Source: an uncultured Holophagales bacterium
Lineage (GTDB): Bacteria; Acidobacteriota; Thermoanaerobaculia; Multivoradales; UBA5704
Length of the DNA: 64,000 nucleotides
Direction: 5' to 3'
NCBI GenBank assembly: GCA_963842525.1
Contig: CAWJGT010000001.1
Location: 448,001 to 512,000 of the forward strand
Part shown: positions 13,990-58,506 of the stretch, in pieces
Position numbering within the stretch: the stretch's first letter is position 1
Layout: the number at the start of each line of letters is the position of its first letter
The notes under the pieces: generated by a model
Database searches by the model: none
What the model saw: the letters and a program-made list of their open reading frames with translations, nothing else
Told to the model about the DNA's origin: nothing
Program-made: the position numbers and the translations under genes

Positions 13990-15339
13990 TTACGGATGCA
14001 ATCCAGGTGACGTCAAAGTCCGTGGCGGCCCGGGCGGGACCTCACCCCCTGTCCCCCTCTCCCATCTCCCTTCCATCCCCCGCCGGGAGAGGGGGGACGT
14101 GGCTGGGGAGTCGGTGGCGAGTCCGATGTCAGAAGATTTCGACGCACCGGGCTCTGGCCTCGTCTCGACCGCATCAACTGCGTTCCCCCTCTCCCGGGGG
14201 TGGACGGGTGGGAGATGGGAGAGGGGGACAGGGGGTGAGGTCTGCTCCGGCTGGCCCTCGGCCGTGGCCTCCCCGGGCTCGACCGGTGCCGCTTCGAGGC
14301 TCTCTGCCTCCACAGCCTCTTCACCCTCCAGGACGATCTCGTCTTCCATCTCTTCGAAGGCGACCTCTTCGTCTCCGGACGGCTCGTCGGCGAAAGGCTC
14401 TAACGTCTCCGGTCCCTCGAAGACCAGGACCTGGCCGGCCTGGATCTCGTCGGGCTCCGGGGCGAAGCCCTCGCCGGCGATCTCCTGGGTGAGCTCGGTT
14501 TCCTCCTCGACGAAGTCCCAATTCTGGACCGGCCCCGAGTCCAGCTCGCCCGAGAAGACGAAGCCGACGCTCTCGTCGGTATAGATCTCCTCGACCGTAT
14601 CGTCGGCCTGGACCCAGTCCGCCTGCGCCGTCGGATTCGCGGCACGCGTGCCGTACCACTCGCCCCGGATGGTGTCGCTGAGCACCGAGGATTCGAGGTA
14701 GTCGTCGAGAGTGAGCGGCGCCTGGGCGATGCTCTGCGCCTGCACGATGAGCTGGCCGAGCTGCGCGGCGGTCGTCTTATCTCCTGTTGCAGCGGCGTGA
14801 TCGCGGAGGGGCTCCAGCCGGCCGGCCAGGCGGGCCTGCTCGGCACGCATCCGCTCGAACCGCCGCCGCTCCTCGTCGTTGAGCGGCTTGCCGGTGCGGA
14901 AGCGCACCCATTCCGGGCCATAGCGGTTCCTGAGCTGCCGGTAGGCGGCCGAGAGCGTCCGCATCTCCTGGTCCATCTGATCCATGCGGGGGTCGCGGTC
15001 GCCGATCCGCGCCCAGACCGTCCCGAGCTGCGCCAGCGCCACGCTGCCGGACCGCAGGGCCCGGAAGAACGACAGGTCCCGCCGTGTCAGCGAGGTGCCC
15101 ACGTCGAAGAGGGACGCCTGCATCCGGTCCATCGACATCCAGAAGGCGCCGCCGCGAGGGTCGCGCCGGTCGAGCTTGCCATGGGCCGCCCGGGCGGTCT
15201 GTGACCAGGCCCGCTCCGCAATCCGGACCAGCTTCCTCGCATTGACCCGAGGAGCCTTTTGCGCGCCGGCAGCGGGCGTCAGGCCCACGGCGAGCAGGCA
15301 CAGGCAGCACAGGATGCGCGAAGCTCTCGAACGGAACAT
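13990..15339 (-). CDS. Secreted hypothetical protein with acidic tail; C-terminus reads through a palindromic repeat
   Basis: Signal peptide MFRSRASRILCCLCLLAVGLTPAAGA; E-rich region; residues near the C-terminus are encoded by repeat 14040-14240. Confidence 0.75.
   Translation of the reverse strand: MFRSRASRILCCLCLLAVGLTPAAGAQKAPRVNARKLVRIAERAWSQTARAAHGKLDRRDPRGGAFWMSMDRMQASLFDVGTSLTRRDLSFFRALRSGSVALAQLGTVWARIGDRDPRMDQMDQEMRTLSAAYRQLRNRYGPEWVRFRTGKPLNDEERRRFERMRAEQARLAGRLEPLRDHAAATGDKTTAAQLGQLIVQAQSIAQAPLTLDDYLESSVLSDTIRGEWYGTRAANPTAQADWVQADDTVEEIYTDESVGFVFSGELDSGPVQNWDFVEEETELTQEIAGEGFAPEPDEIQAGQVLVFEGPETLEPFADEPSGDEEVAFEEMEDEIVLEGEEAVEAESLEAAPVEPGEATAEGQPEQTSPPVPLSHLPPVHPRERGNAVDAVETRPEPGASKSSDIGLATDSPATSPLSRRGMEGRWERGTGGEVPPGPPRTLTSPGLHP
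14040..14240. repeat. ~200-nt palindromic MITE/REP-like element (full copy)
   Basis: 31-nt terminal inverted repeat cctcaccccctgtccccctctcccatctccc; interior similar to the reverse complement of the 38556 and 58307 copies. Confidence 0.9.
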
Positions 15340-16730: not shown

Positions 16731-16925
16731 CCTCACCCCCTGTCCCCCTCTCCCATCTCCCTCCCTTCCCCCGGGAGAGGGGGAACGTCGCTGAGGCGGT
16801 ATGCGCGAGTCCCTGGCAAACCTATCTGTGGAATGTTCGCCTCGACCTCGCCTCGAACGCTCCGCCTGCGTCCCCCCTCTCCCGGTCGGGGGGAGGGAGA
16901 TGGGAGAGGGGGACAGGGGGTGAGG
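16731..16925. repeat. Palindromic MITE/REP-like element (full copy)
   Basis: Same 31-nt terminal inverted repeats, downstream of the metH stop. Confidence 0.9.
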
Positions 16926-29794: not shown

Positions 29795-29944
29795 GCCCCT
29801 CCCCCGACCCCTCCCCCGCGCGGCCGCCACACTCCCTCCCCGAGCGGGAGAGGGGCGCCTCCACCCGAGTTCTTCTGGTTTCCCCCTCTCCCGTTCGGGG
29901 CGGTGGGCGGGGGACGCACGGGAGAGGGGGCAGGGGGAGAGGGC
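29795..29944. repeat. Divergent CCCTCTCCC-type palindromic element
   Basis: gccctcccccgacccctcccccgcg...cgggagagggggcagggggagagggc between convergent stops. Confidence 0.7.
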
Positions 29945-35177: not shown

Positions 35178-35700
35178 GGGTTTTCTCCTTGGTTGAAGCC
35201 TCGGAGCCTCTCCTAAGGCAAAGCGGATGCCATATCGCAGGATGCTTGAAAACAAAAGAGTTACCGGGATGGAGCGTGCGCGCGGGGGTGGCTGTTGTCT
35301 CCTGGAAAGGACGGTTTGACCTCCGCGCGCATCTGGACTGCTAGGCTCCCGCGCCCGGCAGCCGTAACAGACCTGGGAAGGGCATACGCGCTAACTTTGC
35401 TCTGGGTGTGGAGGGAGCCGCCGACCGCTGAAGCGGGCGGGCGCGATCCTCGACAGCCGCTTCCCGAAACCATCCTCCTGACCGTCTGAAATGCTGGGGA
35501 GACCCGTCCTCTGAGCTGGGGGAGCGGGCTCTGAGTTGGGGGAGGCCCGCCCCAGACAGACACGGGGCGCCGGCTCTGAGTTGGGGGTGAGCCCCCCTGC
35601 CTGGGGGAGCGTTCCCCCAGGCCAGATGCGCTCCCCCCCAACCCGGCCGTGTGCTGTCCCTGCGGTGTGGCCTTTCGACTCAGGTAGAATTCCTTCATCC

Positions 35701-38464
35701 ATGCCTGGAGCCAAGACCTTCGACGTCTTTCTCAGCCACAACAGCAAGGACAAGACCGCCGTCCTCGAGCTGGCGGAGTCACTGCGGCGCCGGAAGCTGA
35801 AGGTCTGGTTGGACGTGTGGGAGCTGCGGCCTGGGCAGCTCTGGCAGAAGGCCCTGGAAGCGGCCATCGCGAGCATCCGTTCGGCCGCCATCCTCGTTGG
35901 GAAGGACGGTCTGGGTCCCTGGGAAGACCAGGAGATGGATGCATTTCTGCGGAGGTTCGTGAAACGCACTGCCGACAGCGTCATTCCCGTTCTGCTGCCC
36001 GGCGCCCCGGAAAGGGTCGAGCTGCCACTGTTCCTTGAAGGCTTCACCTGGGTCGACCTCAGAGAGGGCCTGATTCCCGCGAAGCTGGACACATTGGTCT
36101 GGGGGATCACCGGCCGCAAACCAAAGCCGCTCCGCGTTGGTCTTCCTCCCCCCTCTCCCGGTGGACGGGGGGGCGATGGGAGAGGGGGGGCAGGGGGGTG
36201 AGGATCCCGACCTCGCCGCCTACCGGGCCTGGGCACTGGACCGCTATCGCGGCCTGAGCCTGATCGGCCTCGGGGCGGCCGACGTCCGGATGCGTTTCGA
36301 GGTGGTCTACGTACCGCTGCGGATCGCCCGCCGGCCGGGCCGCTTCGAGATGGAAGTCGAGACCGGAAAGCGGCCCGGCCGCGGCCTGGGAGCGGCGGGC
36401 TCCGACGAGATCGAGATCGAAGAGATCTTCGCGACCGGCGTGCCGCACTCGCTGGTTCTTGGCCACCCGGGAGCCGGCAAGACGACGTCGCTCCTGAAGC
36501 TCCTCCACCTCTGTCTCGCCGAGGGTCCGAAGCCTCGGAGCTTGGCAGAGGGCACCGTGCCGGTTCTCCTCCGGCTGCGGCACCTCACCGCCGCGGACCT
36601 TGACCGCCCGCTGGCCGATTTCGCCGAGCGCGAGCTGGCCGAGACTTCCGGCGGCGCTCTGCCGGCCGGACTCGGCACCCGCCTATGGGACCGGGGGCGC
36701 CTGCTCCTGCTGCTCGATGGGTTGGACGAGATCGCGGACGAGGCGCTACGCACCCGCGTCTGCGGCTTTCTGGACTTCGCGCTCACCGGCGCCGAGCGGC
36801 GGCACATTCGTGCCATTCTCTCTTGCCGCTTCGCAGGCTATGGGGGGAGGTCCGGTTCGGCGAGCATCCAGGAGTACCTGACGGCGCTCCACATCGCCAG
36901 CCAGGGGGCCGAGTTGCTCGGCGAGCCGTGCGCCCGCTGCGGCGACGAGTGGTGGCACGAAGTCCTGTTGCTGGTGGTGGGGCTGCCAGGCCGGCGGCTC
37001 TTCGGTCCCTTGATGGAGCGGCTGCTCGCCGTGACGGACCTCCCGCAGCGGGAAGACCTGCTGCGCGCCTGCCTCGACGAGGCCGCGGAGGTGGACCTCG
37101 AACCTTTGCTGTCCCGGCTCGTTCCGGAAGAGCCACCGCAGCGTCTGGCCGTGGTATTGCGTCTCCTGCGCGGCCGCTCTGATCCGCGGCTCTTGGAACG
37201 GGTCACACCGCTCATCGAAAGCACGGACGCCGGGGTGGCTGCACTCGCGCGACAGATCGCCGCCGAGCTGAGCCGGCCGGCGGCGGTGGCCAGGCCGGTC
37301 TGCGACCTCTTCGTCGTCCACCACCCGGCCGATGGGGAGAGCGCCTTCGAGTTGGTGCGGGTCCTGCGCCGGGCGGGGCGGCACGTCCTCGTGGCCGGGG
37401 AGGACCCGCTCTCGGAAAACATCGCGGAAGGAACCACTGCTGTGGCCGTGTTGGCCGGCCCGAGCGGTCGTCCACCCTGGGAAGTGAAGGACCTCTACCG
37501 GACCCTTCGCCTCTTCACCCGGCGCCGGAGGCCCCTCGTGCCGGTGCGGCTGCCGGGTGCCGGAACGTTCCCTGCGCCGCCGGGTGACCTCCCGGCTCTG
37601 GACTGGGTCGATCTCCGCCAGGGGTTGGCGCGAGCGGCCGAGGCGTTGGAGCTCGCCCTGGAAAAGAAGCCGGCCATCTTGACGGCACCACCGGCCGGCC
37701 AGCCTTCGGCCGAGCCCGGCCGCACCTGGATCGAGCCGGTCACCGGTATTCGTTTCCTCTGGATTCCGGGTGGGCGGTTCCAGATGGGAGGAAACCGGTT
37801 CCCCGACGAACAGCCTGTTCACTGGGTTCGGGTCTCCCCCTTCTGGCTGGGGGAGACGCCGGTGACCAACCAGCAGTATGCGCTGTTTCTCGATCAGACC
37901 CGCTATCGAGAGCCCGATTTCTGGCGGGACCGGCGCTTCTCCGCCCCGGAGCAGCCGGTGGTCGGCGTGAGCTGGGAGGACGCAGAGGTTTTTTGCGCGT
38001 GGCTCGCGCGCGTTTCTGGCAAGGCCGTGGTCCTGCCCAGCGAGGCGCAGTGGGAATTCGCAGCACGGGGGCCGGACGCACGGGAGTATCCCTGGGGCAA
38101 CGCCGCGCCGGGTGAGACACTGGCCTGTTTCGATCTCGACTTTGAGAAAGGTCAGCCAGCGCCGGTCGGCTCATACCCGGAGGGCCGGGGGCCTTTTGGC
38201 ACGCTGGACCAGGCAGGCAACGTCTGGGAGTGGTGCCTGGACGTTTGGGACGAGAAGGCATATCAGAAGCGCGCAAAGGGAAGGGAGCCCTTGGATCCAG
38301 TGGTCAGTGGCGAAGGGGAAGGGCGGGTGCTTCGGGGCGGCGGCTGTTTCAGCCCCGCGGAGAATCTGCGGGCCGCTTACCGCGACGGGTCCCGCGCCAG
38401 GTTCCGGGACGACGATGTCGGCTTCCGCGTCGCCGCCGCGCCCGCGAGCACCTTGAAGCCTTGA
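35701..38464 (+). CDS. TIR-NACHT-TIR-FGE(C-type lectin) protein, DGR target; frameshift at ~36195 and apparent internal deletion at ~36860
   Basis: TIR (FDVFLSHNSKDK..WLD..PWEDQEM), Walker A GHPGAGKTT, Walker B LLLLDGLDE, degenerate TIR (DLFVVHH..PLVPVRLP..WVDLR), FGE (F.MG, PVTNQQY, PVVGVSW, LPSEAQWE.AAR, GNVWEW, RGG, GFRV). Confidence 0.85.
36148..36203. repeat. Half palindromic element inside the TIR-NACHT linker
   Basis: cccccctctcccggtggacggggggcgatgggagagggggggcaggggggtgagg. Confidence 0.8.
38330..38449 (+). other. DGR variable region + IMH, copy 1
   Basis: Differs from 38801-38920(-) at 18/120 nt, 17 of them at codon positions 1-2; no synonymous changes. Confidence 0.85.
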
Positions 38465-38480
38465 TTCTTGTTTTGGGGGT

Positions 38481-38499
38481 CCAGGGGCGGAGCCCCTGG
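38481..38499 (+). other. DGR-type GC hairpin downstream of IMH, copy 1
   Basis: CCAGGGGC-GGA-GCCCCTGG. Confidence 0.8.
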
Positions 38500-38555
38500 T
38501 CGCTGCACGACCGGGAGAGAGGGTCTTCCGAGAGAGGGGTAGAGGCGGCTTGGGT

Positions 38556-38752
38556 CCTCACCCCCTGTCCCCCTCTCCCATCTCCCACCCTTCCACCCCC
38601 GGGAGAGGGGGGACGCGGTTGATGCACCTGAAGCGAGGCCGGAGCTCGCTTCGGGCGTGTTGACATCGGGCTCGCCGCGGAGGCGCCAGCTACGTCCCCC
38701 CTCTCCCGGCGGGGGGTGGAAGGGAGATGGGAGAGGGGGACAGGGGGTGAGG
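38556..38752. repeat. Palindromic MITE/REP-like element (full copy)
   Basis: 31-nt terminal inverted repeats; preceded by GGGGTAGAGGCGGCTTGGGT. Confidence 0.9.
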
Positions 38753-38753
38753 A

Positions 38754-38772
38754 CCAGGGGCTCCGCCCCTGG
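38754..38772 (-). other. DGR-type GC hairpin, copy 2
   Basis: Reverse complement is CCAGGGGC-GGA-GCCCCTGG. Confidence 0.8.
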
Positions 38773-38794
38773 ACCCCAAACAAAACCCAAAGAA

Positions 38795-39235
38795 TCAAGG
38801 GCTCGCGGGCGCGGCGGCGACGCGGAAGCCGACAAGGTCGCTCCGGTCCCAGGCGTGGCTCCCGAAGCGGAAAGCGGCCCGCAGATTCCCCGCGGGGAGG
38901 ACCCAGCCGCCGCCCCGAAGCGGCCGTATCGCGTCATCTGCTTTTGTCAGTCCAAGGTCATCCTTGCACCACTCCCAGACGTTGCCTGCCAGATCGCAGT
39001 GACCGGACCAGCCATTTCCTGCCGGATAGATTCCCACCGGCGTCGGGCGGCCTACAGTACCGTCGAAATTCGCATGCTCAGGATCGGGTTCTTCCGCGCC
39101 CCAGGGGTACTCGCCCACCACCGGAGCCGCCGCCTTCTCCCATTCGGCCTCGGTGGGGAGGCGCAGCGGCATTCCTTTCTGCTCGCTCAGCCAGCGGCAA
39201 TAGGCGTCCGCCTCATACCAGGAGACCTCGGTCAC
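38795..39235 (-). pseudogene. 5'-truncated FGE-sulfatase/C-type-lectin DGR target gene
   Basis: Begins mid-domain (VTEVSWYEADAYC), LPTEAEWE, GNVWEW, GFRVAAAPAS; joined upstream to a broken hairpin. Confidence 0.85.
38801..38920 (-). other. DGR variable region + IMH, copy 2
   Basis: LRGGGWVLPAGNLRAAFRFGSHAWDRSDLVGFRVAAAPAS; 28 of 40 codons identical to copy 1. Confidence 0.85.
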
Positions 39236-39237
39236 CG

Positions 39238-39312
39238 CGCCCCTGGACCCCAGACGAAAGCCAAAAAAATCAAAGAATCAAGGGCTCGCGGGCGCGGCGG
39301 CGACGCGGAAGC
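39238..39312 (-). repeat. Third IMH/stop/partial-hairpin remnant
   Basis: gcttccgcgtcgccgccgcgcccgcgagcccttgattctttg...ggggtccagggcg; the VR proper is missing. Confidence 0.8.
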
Positions 39313-39742
39313 GGCAAGAAAACCGTCTTCGACCTTGAGGATGGGGCGGTCGCCGTCGATCCCGTCGACCATGGCGAGGGCGAGGCGGGCGAAGGCGTTC
39401 CAGGCAAAGCGGTCGGTGAAGCCTTCCTTCTCCCGCAGCGCGGTCCGCGAGGCGATCAGCCATTTGATGACTGCCCTGTAGACGCGCGACCGCCCTTCCG
39501 GCAGGTGGCCCTCGTTCCAATGCACCACGCAGAGGCAGGTGAGCATCACCGGGTTGGTGGCGAGCCGGCGGACCCGCGGCAGGTCGCAGATCGCGGAGAC
39601 CAGGTCCGCCCGGTAGCGTTCGGCCTCGCCGCGCAGGGCTTGCGGGTCTTCCGCCGCATGGAGGCCCGCAACCCAGTGATCGAGGAAGGTACGGATCTCA
39701 GCTTCCCCGAAAGGATCGATGACGGCGGTGTGAAACCCCATC
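39313..39742 (-). pseudogene. NACHT helical-domain fragment
   Basis: IDPFGEAEIRTFLDHW, LATNPVMLTCLC, LPEGRSRVY, LALAM. Confidence 0.8.
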
Positions 39743-39856
39743 CGCGTCCTGCCAGTGGGAAGCAGCCATGAACTCTTCGTGGCCGACTGTGACGTAGCTC
39801 TCGATTTTCGCAACGGCATCGAGAATATGCCGCAGGTAAGGCTCGTCTCGGCTCAC
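39743..39856 (-). pseudogene. Truncated HepT/DUF86 toxin
   Basis: GTG overlaps the MNT stop; reads MSRDEPYLRHILDAVAKIESYVTVGHEEFMAASHWQDA, then joins the NACHT fragment. Confidence 0.8.
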
Positions 39857-40140
39857 AGCGGGACGGCTTCAGAGAGAACTTGCTGCCGCAGGTAGGGGGA
39901 CAGGGATTGCTCCGTGACGACGTCCACCGGACGATGAACGAGATCCTCCAGATCCTGCTTCAGTCCAATCAGGTCAAGGAGCGAGCGTTCGTGCCCAAGA
40001 GTCACGAGCAGATCGAGGTCGCTGCCCTCGCGGCCTTCGCCCCTGGCCAGGGAGCCGAACACGCGCACATTGCTGGCCCCATGGCGCTTTGCCAGATCAA
40101 GGATTTTCGCGCGGTAGTCCCGGAGAAGAAAGGCACTCAT
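39853..40140 (-). CDS. MNT (MntA-like) nucleotidyltransferase antitoxin
   Basis: VRVFGSLARGE...SDLDLLV, LEDL....VDVVT. Confidence 0.93.
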   Translation of the reverse strand: MSAFLLRDYRAKILDLAKRHGASNVRVFGSLARGEGREGSDLDLLVTLGHERSLLDLIGLKQDLEDLVHRPVDVVTEQSLSPYLRQQVLSEAVPL

Positions 40141-40235: not shown

Positions 40236-41762
40236 TCACTCCCTTTCCGGCCGGATCCGCACGAGCTGCGCGTTCGAGTCGACGCCGTCCTTGGTGACGA
40301 CCCAGACGAGGGCGCAGCCGTCGTGGAGGCCGCTGGTGGGGAGGGTGGCGGTGATCTGCTGGGGCGATTCCTGCCAGCGGGGGTCGCCCTTGGCGCGCAG
40401 CTCGACGAGGACGTTCGGGTCGTCGCGGTTCCGGTCGTGGGCCTGTAGGACCAGGACCCTGTTGCCGCGGCGGCCGAACCCCTCGCCGGAGACCGTGACC
40501 GGACCACCCGGATGAAGGAAGAGGCTCCCGGCCTCGGGGGTGTCGACGACTCCCTGGGGCCCGATCGAGGGGCAGCCGGGGGGCAGGGTCGCCGGCTGGC
40601 CGCGGAGGAGAGACTGCAGGACCGATCCCGAGAGCGTCATCTCGGCGGTGCGGCCACGGAAGAGGCCGTAGAGGAGCCAGTCGATCTGGCCTTCAGGGTC
40701 TCCCTCGTCCCGGAGATCCCCCACGCACGGCGTGCGCCGCCCACCGCGCCAGCCGTTGTCCAGCGCCTGCCAATGGATGACATAGGAGACCTGGAAGGCG
40801 CCGGGGTCCTCCAGGGCGAGGACCAGCTCCCGCACGTAGCGCGCCGCCAGGCACTCGCTGTAGATGGAGCGGGCGAAGCCGAGCTCCCCGAGGATGAAGT
40901 TCTCCTCCCCGACGTCCCGCCGGCGGCGGCGGACCTGCTGCAGAGCAAAACCGAGGTCGTTCTTCAGTGTCTTCGCCAGGCTCGCCTCCGGCCGCTCGCG
41001 TTTCACGTTGAGGCTCTGCCAGGCGGAATAGGAGTAGTAGTCCACGCTGACCCGCGGCGCCACGGTGTCAATGATGCAGAGCACCTCGCCGTCGCCGCAA
41101 CGCACGCCGTCGCGCTCGACGAGGTTGAACTCCAGCCCGGAGTAGAGCTGGGCCGAGCTGCCGGGCCGGCGGGCGCGGGCTTCCCGGACCCCCTGGGCCC
41201 GCGCTTCGGTGCGGCTGATGAATTCGTCCCATTCCGGCGAGCCCGGAGGCTCCGGCCCCACCGCGTTGTCGCCTTCCCAGTTGAGGAGGATGAAGGTCTT
41301 GCCCGCATAGGCCGGCTCGCCGAGGAGGTGCTCACCCAGCCGGGCGATCTGGCGCCGCACCGCCGCGAAGCCGTTCGGCTCATTGCTCGAGATGGACACG
41401 GTGATCAGGTAAGTGCGGAAACGCGGGTCGCCGAAGAGGGCGTCGTAGGCCGGGCTGGCGGCGATCCGTTGCAGGTACCGGTCGCCGGACGCGTTGATCG
41501 GCGGGTTCACCTGGTAGGAATCCGCCGGGCCCATGTAGATGCGGATGGTCCGGCTGCCGATCGCGGCCACCTTGTCGGCGCCCCAGGCGAGGCGGTTCGG
41601 CACGCCGGGCCAGGCGGAGATGTCGGCGCTCCAGTGATAGACGCCGAAGCGGTCGGCCCGCGCCGTGGGCGGGTCCGGCACGGCTCGGGCCGCAGCGGCG
41701 CCCAGGGCCAGGAGGGGGAGGGTGAGGAGCACGGGGAGGATCGAGGGCGAGCGGACAGGCAT
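40236..41762 (-). CDS. Secreted protein, possible clan GH-A-like barrel + Ig-like domain (paralog 1)
   Basis: Signal peptide; ILLNWEGDN, DYYSYSAW, ILGELG; highly similar to the 41808-43379 protein. Confidence 0.75.
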   Translation of the reverse strand: MPVRSPSILPVLLTLPLLALGAAAARAVPDPPTARADRFGVYHWSADISAWPGVPNRLAWGADKVAAIGSRTIRIYMGPADSYQVNPPINASGDRYLQRIAASPAYDALFGDPRFRTYLITVSISSNEPNGFAAVRRQIARLGEHLLGEPAYAGKTFILLNWEGDNAVGPEPPGSPEWDEFISRTEARAQGVREARARRPGSSAQLYSGLEFNLVERDGVRCGDGEVLCIIDTVAPRVSVDYYSYSAWQSLNVKRERPEASLAKTLKNDLGFALQQVRRRRRDVGEENFILGELGFARSIYSECLAARYVRELVLALEDPGAFQVSYVIHWQALDNGWRGGRRTPCVGDLRDEGDPEGQIDWLLYGLFRGRTAEMTLSGSVLQSLLRGQPATLPPGCPSIGPQGVVDTPEAGSLFLHPGGPVTVSGEGFGRRGNRVLVLQAHDRNRDDPNVLVELRAKGDPRWQESPQQITATLPTSGLHDGCALVWVVTKDGVDSNAQLVRIRPERE

Positions 41763-41807: not shown

Positions 41808-43379
41808 TCAGTGCCCGGGCGGTGCCGGGCGAATACGGACGAGGAGGGCGTTGGACTCGATCTTGTCGTCGCGAGAGACCCAGACCAGGGCACAGCCGTC
41901 GCGGGGGTCGTTCGCGGGAAGGGTGGCTTTGATCTGCTGCGGCGACTCGAACCACAAGGGATCCGACGCTGACTTCTCGAGGTCGTGGATCACGTTGGCA
42001 ATGGGCGGCCGGATGCTCCGGCGATCGTGACCTCGGAGGATCAGCACGTGATTGCCTTGGGGTCCGAAGTTGTCACCGGAGAGGGTGAGGGGACCGCCCG
42101 CTTGGAAGAGCGGCTCACCTTCCGGGGCAACGATCCTCGGGCATTTCTGCGGCACGGTTGCCGGCTGGCCGCGGAGCAGGTCGCGCAGGACCTTGCCCAA
42201 GACGGTCATCCCGGCGTCGCGCCCGCGGAAAAGGCCGTAGAACAGCCAATCGACGGAGCCTTCCCCCGCACAGGGCGTGCGCTTCCCGGTGCGCCAGCGG
42301 TTGTCCAGCAACTGCCAGAAGATGGCGTAGGAGAGGCGGAACGCGCCGGGAGCGTCGAGGGCCTCCGCGACCTCGCGGAGGTAGTCCGCCGCCAGGCACT
42401 CGCCGAACTGCGAGCGGGCGAAACCGAATTCGCCGAGGAGGAAGCTCTTTTCCTCCACGTCGGGCCGCCGGCTCCGCACCTTGGCCAGCGCGAAGCGGAG
42501 ATCGCTGTCGAATTTCTCCTTCAAGCTGCCTGGCGGCTCGTCGAGCTTCACGTTGAGGGTCTGCCAGGAAGAGTAGGAATAATAGTCGACCGTGACCCGT
42601 GGCGCGACGGAATCGATCACGCAGCGTACCTGCCCGTCGCCGCAGCGCACGCCGTCGCGCTCGACGAGGTTGAACTCAAGCCCTGAGTAGAGCTGAGCAG
42701 AGCTGTTGGGACGGCGGGAGCGGGCGAGCCGGACGCCGTCGGCCCGCGACTGGATCCAACGAGTGAAGCCCTCCGTCGCTGTCGCTGGCGGGGCTGGGGT
42801 TGGGCCGGGGGCTGGGCGCAGGGCGTTGTCCCCTTCCCAGTTCAGGAGGATGAAGGTCTTGCCCGCGTAGGCCGCCCGTGTGAGCAGGTATTCGCCGAGC
42901 CGCAGGATCTGGGTCTTCGAATCCCGGTACTCGGTCGAGCTGAAACCGTCCTGCCAGCCGCCTCCTTGCTCGACCGGGGCGTAGGTGTAGACGGTGAGCA
43001 GGTAGGTACGGAAGCGGGGATCCCGGAAGAGGGCGTCGTATTCCGGGCTGGCGGCGATCCGCCGCAGGTACAGGTCGTCTTTCGGGTTCGTTTTCGGGTT
43101 CGCTCCGTAGGAGTCGGACGGTCCCAGGTAGACGCGGATCGTCCGGCTGCCGATCTCTGCCACCTTGTCGGCGCCCCAGCGCAGGAGCTTCGGCTGGCAC
43201 GAGGGCGGGGCGCCCAGCGGGCACGGCGCGGCAGTGTCGTCGGCGGCCCAGTGATAGATCCCGAAGCGGTCCGTCCGCAGCGCCGGCGGAGCGGGGACGG
43301 CCTGAGCCGGAACGGCGATCAAGCCGCTCAGAAGCACCGCCGGCAGGGCCGGCAGGATCGCCGAGGACCAGCGAGACAT
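41808..43379 (-). CDS. Secreted protein, possible clan GH-A-like barrel + Ig-like domain (paralog 2)
   Basis: Signal peptide; ILLNWEGDN, DYYSYSSW, LLGEFG. Confidence 0.75.
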   Translation of the reverse strand: MSRWSSAILPALPAVLLSGLIAVPAQAVPAPPALRTDRFGIYHWAADDTAAPCPLGAPPSCQPKLLRWGADKVAEIGSRTIRVYLGPSDSYGANPKTNPKDDLYLRRIAASPEYDALFRDPRFRTYLLTVYTYAPVEQGGGWQDGFSSTEYRDSKTQILRLGEYLLTRAAYAGKTFILLNWEGDNALRPAPGPTPAPPATATEGFTRWIQSRADGVRLARSRRPNSSAQLYSGLEFNLVERDGVRCGDGQVRCVIDSVAPRVTVDYYSYSSWQTLNVKLDEPPGSLKEKFDSDLRFALAKVRSRRPDVEEKSFLLGEFGFARSQFGECLAADYLREVAEALDAPGAFRLSYAIFWQLLDNRWRTGKRTPCAGEGSVDWLFYGLFRGRDAGMTVLGKVLRDLLRGQPATVPQKCPRIVAPEGEPLFQAGGPLTLSGDNFGPQGNHVLILRGHDRRSIRPPIANVIHDLEKSASDPLWFESPQQIKATLPANDPRDGCALVWVSRDDKIESNALLVRIRPAPPGH

Positions 43380-44663: not shown

Positions 44664-44720
44664 CCCCCTCTCCCGGGGTGGGGGGGAGGGGTGGCGGGAG
44701 AGGGGGTCAGGGGGTGAGGG
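44664..44720. repeat. Half palindromic element
   Basis: ccccctctcccggg...cgggagagggggtcagggggtgaggg between convergent genes. Confidence 0.8.
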
Positions 44721-57629: not shown

Positions 57630-57686
57630 CCTCACCCCCTGTCCCCCTCTCCCATCTCCCTTCCACCCCCCGCCGGGAGAGGGGGG
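57630..57686. repeat. Palindromic element, left half
   Basis: 31-nt arm plus hairpin; preceded by GGGGTAGAGGTGGCTTGAGT. Confidence 0.85.
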
Positions 57687-57729
57687 ACGCGGCTGAGGCG
57701 TCTGTGGCGAGAGCTGTTGTCGAACGCCG

Positions 57730-57927
57730 ATGCGGCGAAATGGAGAGAGGATCTGGCCTGATCCAAACTGGATGAGGAGAAATTCGGAGAAGATCTTTGG
57801 AGATCCATTTCGGATCAGGCCTGGTCGTCCGAAGATGAGGACAGGAAGAAGAAAGATCAGGACAGATCCAAGGAGGATCAGGACAGATCCAAGGAGGATC
57901 AGGACAGATCGGAATCAGATGTCCTGA
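57730..57927. repeat. 21-nt-period purine-rich tandem tract
   Basis: gatcaggacagatccaaggag exact at 57855 and 57876, partial at 57897, degenerate upstream. Confidence 0.75.
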
Positions 57928-58084
57928 AATTTCCTCTCCCCCAGGTCATCCAGAGAGGTCCTCGACGGGCCCGCGGTCCCAGGATTCTCTCCGGTTCAAA
58001 GTTAGCGCGTATGGGACAGGGGGCGAGGTCTTTCCCCGCGGCCGATCCGCCTGCTACAGCGCCCTCGGCACAACTTTTCCTGCT

Positions 58085-58293
58085 CGAAGGAGATCTCGCC
58101 TGCCAAGTTTCACCTACTGGCGCGCTCGCGAATTGCGAAAGGCGATGACGCCTGCCGAGGAGAAGCTTGCTGCCGCGGATACACAGTGCTTCGCTTTTCA
58201 AACCGGGAACTCTTCGAGCAACCCGAGGAGGTTCTCGATCGGATTGTCGAGGTGGTCGCGGAGATTGCACGCAACAAGGAGGCGGCGGGGTAG
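58085..58293 (+). pseudogene. DUF559/Vsr-like endonuclease remnant (internal deletion)
   Basis: RELRKAMTPAEEKL joined out of frame to RGYTVLRFSNRELFEQPEEVLDRIVEVV...*; the middle of the domain is missing. Confidence 0.75.
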
Positions 58294-58306
58294 AGGCGGC
58301 TTGAGT

Positions 58307-58506
58307 CCTCACCCCCTGTCCCCCTCTCCCATCTCCCACCCGCCCATCCCCGGGAGAGGGGGGACGCAGTTGGTGCATCCGAGACGAGGCCGGAGCCCTG
58401 TGCCTCGGGGCGTGTGATCTCGGGCTCGCCACGGACGCCTCAGCTACGTCCCCCCTCTCCCGGCGGGGGGTGGAAGGGAGATGGGAGAGGGGGACAGGGG
58501 GTGAGG
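58307..58506. repeat. Palindromic MITE/REP-like element (full copy)
   Basis: 31-nt terminal inverted repeats; interior similar to the 38556 copy. Confidence 0.9.

Follow-up and report, generated by a model that had tools for sequence, protein, structure and literature searches.

Probable decayed remnant of a two-target diversity-generating retroelement and NACHT-lectin receptor locus in a Holophagales genome

Introduction

Does the coding stretch at positions 35701-38464 of a 64,000-nt segment from an uncultured Holophagales bacterium (GenBank assembly GCA_963842525.1, contig CAWJGT010000001.1, positions 448,001 to 512,000 of the forward strand) encode a working immune receptor whose sensor is rewritten by a diversity-generating retroelement (DGR), or does it preserve what such a receptor has left behind? 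An earlier note, made from the letters alone, had read this stretch as an NLR-like receptor built of a TIR domain, a NACHT module, a second TIR and an FGE-type lectin with a hypermutable tip. Throughout this work the window is the whole 64,000-nt segment, coordinates are those of the window unless a contig is named, and the genome is the 9.95 Mb assembly to which it belongs (34 contigs, 96% complete).

Sensors of the FGS or C-type lectin (CLec) kind on NACHT proteins, diversified by DGRs and combined with TIR effectors, are already in print in the sections of three sources drawn on here (PMC10907252, PMC7159879, 10.1101/2022.07.19.500537). The relevant sections of Dore et al. 2024 describe DGR-diversified STAND NTPase-CLec targets in the clade 5D loci of Thiohalocapsa PB-PSB1 and its relatives, and also report 'degenerate' loci with their machinery missing or pseudogenised (PMC10907252). 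Links between FGS domains and DGRs in conflict systems are part of the account of Kaur et al. 2020 (PMC7159879), and FGE-type STAND sensors appear in excerpts of a further source (PMC13581612).

In this work we compare the locus with its homologues by profile, alignment, fold and template analysis. Our results indicate that it is quite probably what decay has left of a DGR/STAND immune locus of this published type, one with two targets. The core of the retroelement, comprising Avd, the template repeat (TR) and the reverse transcriptase (RT), is gone and the targets are broken; the variable regions (VR) are therefore frozen.

Results

Layout of the locus

The plus strand at 35701-38464 holds two overlapping open reading frames (ORFs) in different frames, ORF A and ORF B, the former with a probable start at ATG 35701, where it aligns with the N-termini of homologues. 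A search of a protein collection returned 124 relatives, the best of which (P0002, P0003, P0008 and P0016; 55-61% identical, 1078-1105 aa) are single-frame TIR-NACHT-TIR2-FGE proteins; the set of long homologues used below comprises 56 sequences of at least 950 aa among P0002-P0061. The features of the first target are as follows.

35536-36201, plus strand: ORF A, the TIR-bearing frame, ending at TGA 36199-36201
35701-36138, plus strand: coding part of the N-terminal TIR domain, TIR1 (Pfam TIR_2 E 7.5e-23, residues 64-178)
about 36139-36207, no strand: palindromic G/C-rich repeat resembling repetitive extragenic palindromes (REP-like; repeat family D5), in the TIR-NACHT linker
36137-38464, plus strand: ORF B, 775 aa, with a partial NACHT, a weak TIR_2 and a strong FGE-sulfatase Pfam match
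36200-36844, plus strand: pre-NACHT segment with the N-terminal half of the NACHT module (Pfam NACHT, motifs, alignment)
36845-36865, plus strand: deletion scar, seven codons (GRSGSAS) as against 188-214 residues (median 199) in the 56 homologues
36866-37300, plus strand: last part of the helical region that accompanies the NACHT ('IQEYLTAL...'), followed by a helical spacer (alignment)
37301-37645, plus strand: TIR2, internal TIR fold with Asp at the catalytic Glu position
37748-38464 (stop included), plus strand: FGE-sulfatase / C-type-lectin-fold sensor domain (Pfam E 1.7e-50)
38330-38449, plus strand: VR1, fossil variable region at the C-terminal end of the ORF B FGE domain
38468-38501, plus strand: 3' flank common to VR1 and VR2 (inverted repeat I4)

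Beyond these lie an inverted repeat pair and, on the minus strand, the pieces of a convergent second target.

38553-38755, no strand: inverted pair of REP-like elements (inverted repeat I2), in the place that Avd, TR and RT occupy in relatives
38795-39235, minus strand: C-terminal half of the target 2 FGE domain, with VR2 (Pfam FGE-sulfatase E 1.8e-32, profile positions 93-254)
38801-38920, minus strand: VR2, end of the convergent FGE fragment
39236-39312, minus strand: third copy of the VR 3' tail, stop and flank (77 nt), abutting the NACHT fragment (repeats D8 and D19)
39313-39819, minus strand: NACHT middle piece of target 2, with about 50% identity to target-2 genes in seven DGR loci

Pfam, profile and fold evidence places the four domains of the earlier note (a TIR with its Glu, a NACHT with Walker A and B motifs, a second TIR and an FGE lectin) where it had put them. 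PADLOC returned no model match for ORF B and matched ORF A with TIR models only, and a promoter and terminator scan of 35200-39400 yielded no signal exceeding shuffled expectation.

Variable regions of the lectin tip

A Foldseek search with the model of the FGE domain returned PvdO (5hha, E 7.4e-19), as well as FGE and TvpA (2y3c), and this fold assignment, the Pfam match and the footprint found in VR1 together bear out the proposal that the FGE-type lectin carries a variable region. The FGE domains bearing VR1 and VR2 share about 48% protein identity, and over the last 125-180 nt or so of both targets, stop and 3' flank included, the DNA is 84% identical. Within the 120 nt of the variable regions there are 18 differences, distributed 8/9/1 over codon positions 1/2/3, which is the opposite of ordinary divergence. 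In an alignment of the two regions with templates from eight related DGR loci, the differences sit on template codons of the AAC/AAT type, and 16 of the 18 fall on adenines of the L028 template, as compared with 8 of the 98 identical sites (Fisher p 5.5e-12).

One of the two non-adenine exceptions is accounted for if the lost template had AAC at that point, as L018 does. The other, a change from TGG to TGT in the scaffold Trp that follows 'RGG[GS]', is not at an adenine site; among 16 homologues, 13 have Trp here and 3 have Phe, and Cys occurs in the window alone. Since homing would have erased such a change, the replacement of Trp by Cys at the tip is best read as drift after homing ended. 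From these comparisons we take the VR1/VR2 pattern as a whole to be the footprint of past DGR hypermutation.

The last 30 nt of VR1 (38420-38449) form a constant, GC-rich 3' segment that is identical in VR2 and in the third tail copy. Within the shared flank, 17 nt past the stop, lies a hairpin with an 8 bp stem, CCAGGGGC-GGA-GCCCCTGG (38481-38499). The segment and the hairpin are candidates for a 3' end of the initiation of mutagenic homing (IMH) type, and telling IMH from IMH* would take a TR. The reading of VR1 and VR2 as a TR/VR pair was considered and rejected, because adenines occur in either one at sites that vary in the other and because both terminate coding FGE domains.

Among proteins of known structure, the window domain is like TvpA of Treponema denticola (PDB 2y3c), a variable protein diversified by a DGR, in its sensor fold (Foldseek E 6.9e-15, target-normalised TM-score, TMt, 0.73) and in having its variable residues at the C-terminal end. 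TvpA is a stand-alone surface lipoprotein, whereas the window FGE domain forms the sensing end of an NLR-like protein of cytoplasmic type.

Related loci and the missing retroelement core

The relatives of the locus suggest what has been lost. In 8 of 40 homologue loci, a TR and a VR form a clean pair whose mismatches lie at adenines of the template (11/11 in L018, 13/13 in L023, 12/12 in both L028 and L031, 17/18 in L034, 10/10 in both L035 and L043, and 23/25 in L050); two further loci have partial pairs (L027, L044) and the other 30 have none in the stretch examined. A DGR-type RT adjoins the gene in 16 of the homologue loci examined, and homologues 41-48% identical are demonstrable DGR targets. 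L028 and L035, the latter from an Acidobacteriota metagenome-assembled genome (MAG), share the order target 1 (+), (HTH), bAvd, TR, RT, target 2 (-), where HTH denotes a helix-turn-helix gene. The idea of an NLR-like, DGR-diversified receptor thus stands for the family, whose members include real DGR targets, and fails for this copy as a working one.

Profile searches and self-BLAST found no RT, Avd or TR in the window, and searches of the whole 9.95 Mb assembly with the variable regions returned VR1, VR2 and the tail of the window only, with no template. As far as the assembly shows, the suggestion that this copy is hypermutable, or diversifying today, is not supported. The genome contains 18 RVT_1 matches, none of them in the window and the nearest 316 kb away, and most belong to identical multi-copy, group-II-like sets. 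A DGR-type RT with Avd occurs in the assembly at C3:960257-961942 only, with the RT split across two frames. The locus to which they belong (C3, 958074-961942), the one recognisable DGR of the genome, comprises a NACHT-like/FGE target with its VR at 959151-959295, an Avd-like match at 960257-960571, a TR at 960646-960790 and the RT at 960937-961942; nearly all of its core VR/TR mismatches are at template adenines, and its TR is unrelated in sequence to the lectin tip of the window.

Two side observations concern the same genome. At C14:159753-165880, two long CRISPR-like arrays (repeat of about 33-37 nt, period of about 76 nt) flank an RVT_1 match (C14:162051-162407). Three paralogous DUF4062-like-NACHT-FGE genes lie at C4:102128-105106, C34:146338-149391 and C23:396779-399803; their products measure 992 and 1017 aa, with two frames sharing the coding sequence of the C23 copy, and the DUF4062 assignment is by resemblance to P0041.

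The second target

The window keeps both targets of a DGR locus, as we conclude from the order of target 1, Avd, TR, RT and target 2 in relatives and from the presence of a target-2-like NACHT fragment. The 330 nt between the two target stop codons contain the shared 3' flanks and the REP-like pair only, in a place where relatives have about 2.6 kb of Avd-TR-RT sequence. The target-2 genes that the minus-strand NACHT piece resembles are those of L023, L024, L027, L028, L031, L032 and L034. This piece (39313-39819) was also considered as the NACHT segment missing from ORF B and was rejected as such, being about 50% identical to separate target-2 genes and unlike the sequence of the ORF B family over that region.

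Within the third tail copy, a 50-nt match to the VR tail spans 39263-39312 on the minus strand. This third tail is joined to the NACHT fragment exactly where the constant segment, free of adenines, starts; its flank switches, within the hairpin, to sequence from the interior of an FGE domain. The junction 39312/39313 could, more speculatively, be the scar of an aberrant DGR retrohoming event that deleted part of its own target; for both junctions, recombination is a further possible origin. On its upstream side target 2 adjoins a truncated HepT-like frame and then an MNT nucleotidyltransferase gene.

Damage to the first target

In homologues, the sequence 'GITGxK' leads through a short linker to 'EDPxxxxYRAW', with no REP-like element in between. 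The linker member in the window is 57-69 nt long. Its junction piece has 645 blastn matches in the genome, 635 of them of at least 45 nt, and the REP-like core motif CCCTCTCCC-N8-40-GGGAGAGGG is present in 779 copies in the genome (about 78 per Mb), 12 of them in the window. The TIR frame enters the repeat and stops at TGA 36199-36201, and the NACHT frame picks up at GAG 36200. From the last TIR-frame codon (36136-36138) to that GAG there are 61 nt, a 3n+1 length that matches the observed +1 frame change. Because of this insertion with its frameshift, the TIR is uncoupled from the NACHT, and the effector, NTPase and sensor that homologues carry in a single polypeptide are not found in one in the window copy.

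REP-like copies are found in the window at 14055-14225, 16746-16910, 29884-29928, 36151-36186, 38571-38737, 44666-44704 and 57645-58491; the family is often arranged as inverted pairs, and one of these copies falls within the receptor coding region.

The NACHT module itself is incomplete. Its Pfam match in ORF B (E 1.7e-6) covers only positions 4-96 of the 167 of the profile, and both nucleotide-binding motifs that the earlier note had recognised are in place, Walker A (GHPGAGKTT) at 36461-36487 and Walker B (LLLLDGLDE, of the hhhhDGLDE type) at 36704-36730. Beyond them, 'SCRFAGYG' (36821-36844) is separated from 'IQEYLTAL' (36866-36889) by the seven codons of the scar alone, so that about 192 residues are gone in-frame relative to the median of the homologues. 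At the DNA level, the same-genus orthologues L104 and L105 are longer by some 580-600 nt over the deletion region. Alignment with the 56 homologues thus finds no complete NACHT module in the window copy, and the lost piece appears to be its second half, with the helical and winged-helix parts. In STAND ATPases, the helical and winged-helix part keeps the switch closed and builds the oligomer, and it is essential for the switch. The receptor switch of the window copy is most likely dead. Activation of the TIR through ligand-driven oligomerisation of the NACHT, as once envisaged for this protein, is not supported for this copy, since about 192 NACHT residues are lost and the TIR is uncoupled by the repeat.

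Intact relatives

Intact orthologues, which the earlier note had recommended looking for, were found, two of them in the same genus with a single open frame. These two copies, at G004:C234 (1222-aa open frame) and G002:C15 (1108 aa), contain no internal stops. The same-genus orthologues are 66-74% DNA-identical to the window gene, and their flanks have no match to those of the window. A further same-genus locus, G003:C333:31249-32688 (L106), has TIR1-like and FGE domains in one 586-aa frame with no NACHT between them, and represents a natural short form. The nearest relatives with a named source come from Thermoanaerobaculia MAGs.

A TIR1-like N-terminus is fused to NACHT-FGE in 29 of the 56 long homologues, so that the case which the earlier note named as refuting its reading, homologues that never make this fusion, does not apply. 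Other N-terminal domains in the family are metallophosphatase, SIR2, SEFIR, DUF4062, Mrr and CHAT, and this variety is the effector swapping that is typical of bacterial NLR-like proteins.

The two TIR domains

The PWEDQEM motif of TIR1 occupies 35917-35937. TIR1 can be aligned with AbTIR, PdTIR and BtTir chains, and in the alignment with AbTIR (8g83) the second Glu of the motif (codon 35932-35934) pairs with the Glu of 'WTNYELDG', which we take to be the catalytic residue. The position is Glu in all 30 family TIR1 sequences, and the retention of a Glu noted from the raw sequence is thereby corroborated. On this basis TIR1 is assigned a TIR fold with a conserved Glu and is a putative NADase effector.

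The evidence on TIR2 comes mainly from profiles and models. Its Pfam TIR_2 match (E 4.6e-5, 24.3 bits) falls under the 28-bit cut-off, and a single-sequence search against the PDB gave no meaningful match. A profile of its 55 family members, compared by hhalign with the profile of the 30 TIR1 members, reached a probability of 99.85% (E 8.6e-31, 124 columns). An AlphaFold2 model of 37283-37675, built with 15 homologues, had a mean predicted local distance difference test (pLDDT) of 91.2, and its best PDB matches in Foldseek were Hydra TRR-2, C. elegans TIR-1, MyD88, SARM1, RUN1 and SPARTA, with query-normalised TM-scores (TMq) of about 0.6-0.7. Profile comparison and the predicted structure thus confirm a TIR fold, the same as that of the SARM1 TIR; compared with TIR1, TIR2 has some 8 residues fewer after the first helix-strand pair. 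Where AbTIR has its Glu, the window TIR2 has Asp. Of the 55 family members, 28 have Glu here, 10 have Asp and 17 have some other residue, which makes the earlier description of the second TIR as degenerate a fair one.

TIR2 is found in 55 of the 56 long homologues and is kept with N-terminal effectors as varied as TIR, SIR2, metallophosphatase, SEFIR, DUF4062 and Mrr. A double-TIR layout, which the earlier note thought might be undescribed in this lineage, is accordingly not peculiar to this gene and belongs to the standard chassis of the family. In the literature passages searched, supplements apart, we met no mention of an internal TIR2 in the NACHT-FGE clade, and we make no claim that it is unpublished. 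Excerpts of one source discuss inactive TIRs as presumed multimerisation modules in ParA systems (10.64898/2026.10.19.760177). We tentatively suggest, as a possibility that is doubtful at present, that TIR2 may be a constant, catalytically relaxed module of the NACHT-FGE clade, a scaffold that would couple the lectin sensor to NACHT oligomerisation or template the assembly of effectors.

Neighbouring genes

The MNT-type nucleotidyltransferase gene next to target 2 lies at 39853-40140 on the minus strand (Pfam NTP_transf_2 E 4.1e-15; PADLOC PDC-S09 E 1.1e-35). Its downstream partner, within the stretch 39698-40140 that holds both, a candidate HepT/DUF86-type toxin recognised by eye, without a profile match, is reduced to about its first 37 codons and is cut at the NACHT fragment. 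Further on, 40236-41762 and 41808-43379 (minus strand) are tandem paralogues of 508 and 523 aa with signal-peptide-like N-termini and 71-79% DNA identity over several blocks; they have no Pfam match.

Discussion

Judging from its relatives, the ancestral locus would have comprised target 1 (effector-NACHT-TIR2-FGE, plus strand), Avd, the template repeat, the RT and a convergent target 2 (effector-NACHT-FGE, minus strand). In the window, Avd, TR and RT are gone and a REP-like pair stands in their place, target 2 is in fragments, and target 1 has a REP-like insertion, a +1 frame change and a loss within the NACHT.

Several observations weigh against decay from such a state, or against parts of it. 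Neither a TR nor an RT turned up in the 20-kb loci of the closest intact orthologues (L015, L016, L017, L019, L020, L104 and L105) or in their assemblies; for G004 and G002, the rest of the genome likewise gave no TR. In this branch the DGR could have disappeared or moved early, ahead of the decay of this copy, or it may never have lain next to the gene in that clade. The assembly is 96% complete in 34 contigs, so that a template could sit in the unassembled part. ORF B runs through 775 codons without a stop, and gene prediction gives a 762-aa protein starting at ATG 36176 (P0001), although at a G+C content of about 70% this openness is weak evidence of function; equally, it is no demonstration of decay. 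The frame break lies among runs of six and seven G (G7/G7/G6), and the frameshift could for this reason be an assembly error; the NACHT deletion is independent of it. One public short-read contig matches 35772-36176 exactly, first G7 run included, although its sample may be the same one, and among the public contigs of one study none spans the repeat or the NACHT deletion.

The alternative that fares best against this evidence is a working split system, in which a free TIR protein (35701-36201) would be made beside a short NACHT-TIR2-FGE protein (from ATG 36176) whose fixed lectin tip still senses its ligand. We consider it unlikely. Both frames are open, the start codon lies in-frame inside the repeat, Walker A and B, TIR2 and all invariant FGE columns are retained, and the same-genus 586-aa TIR-FGE frame implies that forms short of a NACHT may be viable. 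The segment of 188-214 residues that is missing here is, however, present in 56 of 56 homologues and corresponds, on established knowledge, to the STAND part needed for the closed switch and the oligomer; the tip has a mutated Trp of invariant type, and open frames are expected by chance at such a G+C content.

It is also conceivable, but quite improbable in our estimation, that the gene is intact and single, the frameshift being due to a misassembled homopolymer run and the receptor being diversified in trans by a DGR in the unassembled part of the genome. The G-runs at the break and the incompleteness of the assembly leave room for such a scenario, and trans-acting DGRs with remote targets are described in the pertinent passages of PMC7159879; nevertheless, the NACHT deletion stands with or without the frameshift, the 61-nt span is what a 3n+1 insertion would give, the short-read contig reproduces the first G7 run without a difference (subject to the caveat on its sample), no TR was found in the assembly and target 2 is in pieces. 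A locus with no DGR history at all, the likeness of VR1 and VR2 being ordinary paralogy or gene conversion at a fast-evolving surface, agrees with the present lack of an RT or matching TR here and in the stretches and assemblies searched for the closest orthologues, and is nonetheless highly improbable in view of 17 of 18 differences at codon positions 1-2 and 16 of 18 on the template adenines of a related DGR, of an identity that climbs from about 48% at the protein level to 84% at the DNA level precisely where the VR and its 3' flank lie, and of homologues that are demonstrable DGR targets.

We therefore return to the decayed two-target locus as the probable state of the window. Its intact relatives, by analogy with bacterial NACHT and Avs proteins, would work as follows. 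A lectin tip that the DGR has altered at the adenines of its template would bind a molecule of the invader; the NACHT ATPase would then oligomerise in a nucleotide-driven manner; and the N-terminal TIRs, brought close to one another, would cleave NAD+ or make a signal, so that the infected cell would be stopped and the infection abort. TIR2, with its unconserved catalytic position, would be likelier in this chain to bridge NACHT and sensor as a scaffold than to act as an enzyme. In the window allele the chain is unlikely to run, and the window copy is unlikely to represent a working or a new immune mechanism.

The window locus is a degenerate member of the published class of DGR/NACHT-lectin receptors. 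It shares with the clade 5D loci, as set out in part of the account of Dore et al., the frequent presence of two targets, a central NACHT/nSTAND, a C-terminal CLec/FGE domain with the VR, TIR effectors in some cases, and variable sites at codon positions 1-2 (PMC10907252). It differs from them in lacking the whole Avd-TR-RT core, in having both targets damaged and in belonging to another lineage, that of the Thermoanaerobaculia relatives named above. Kibby et al. define, in the portion of their text used here, a bNACHT 'antigen-receptor type' with an FGS sensor and presumed diversification by a DGR RT, and none of the experimentally tested bNACHTs in that portion is of the FGS type (10.1101/2022.07.19.500537). 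The combination of an effector (TIR, SIR2 or calcineurin-like phosphoesterase), a NACHT and a C-terminal FGS in that type, as far as this portion describes it, is matched by the same swaps among the homologues studied here, whereas the window copy is without half of the NACHT module.

Conclusions

The locus provides a clear natural example of the decay of a DGR-coupled NLR-like system, in which the retroelement core was lost, the variable regions were frozen and the targets were cut by repeat insertion and deletion. It illustrates that two orphan targets can by themselves reveal earlier DGR activity, through the codon-position pattern of their differences and the match of these differences to the template adenines of a relative, which is useful for the annotation of MAGs. 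For those studying intact orthologues, the presence of TIR2 across the family poses a concrete structural question.

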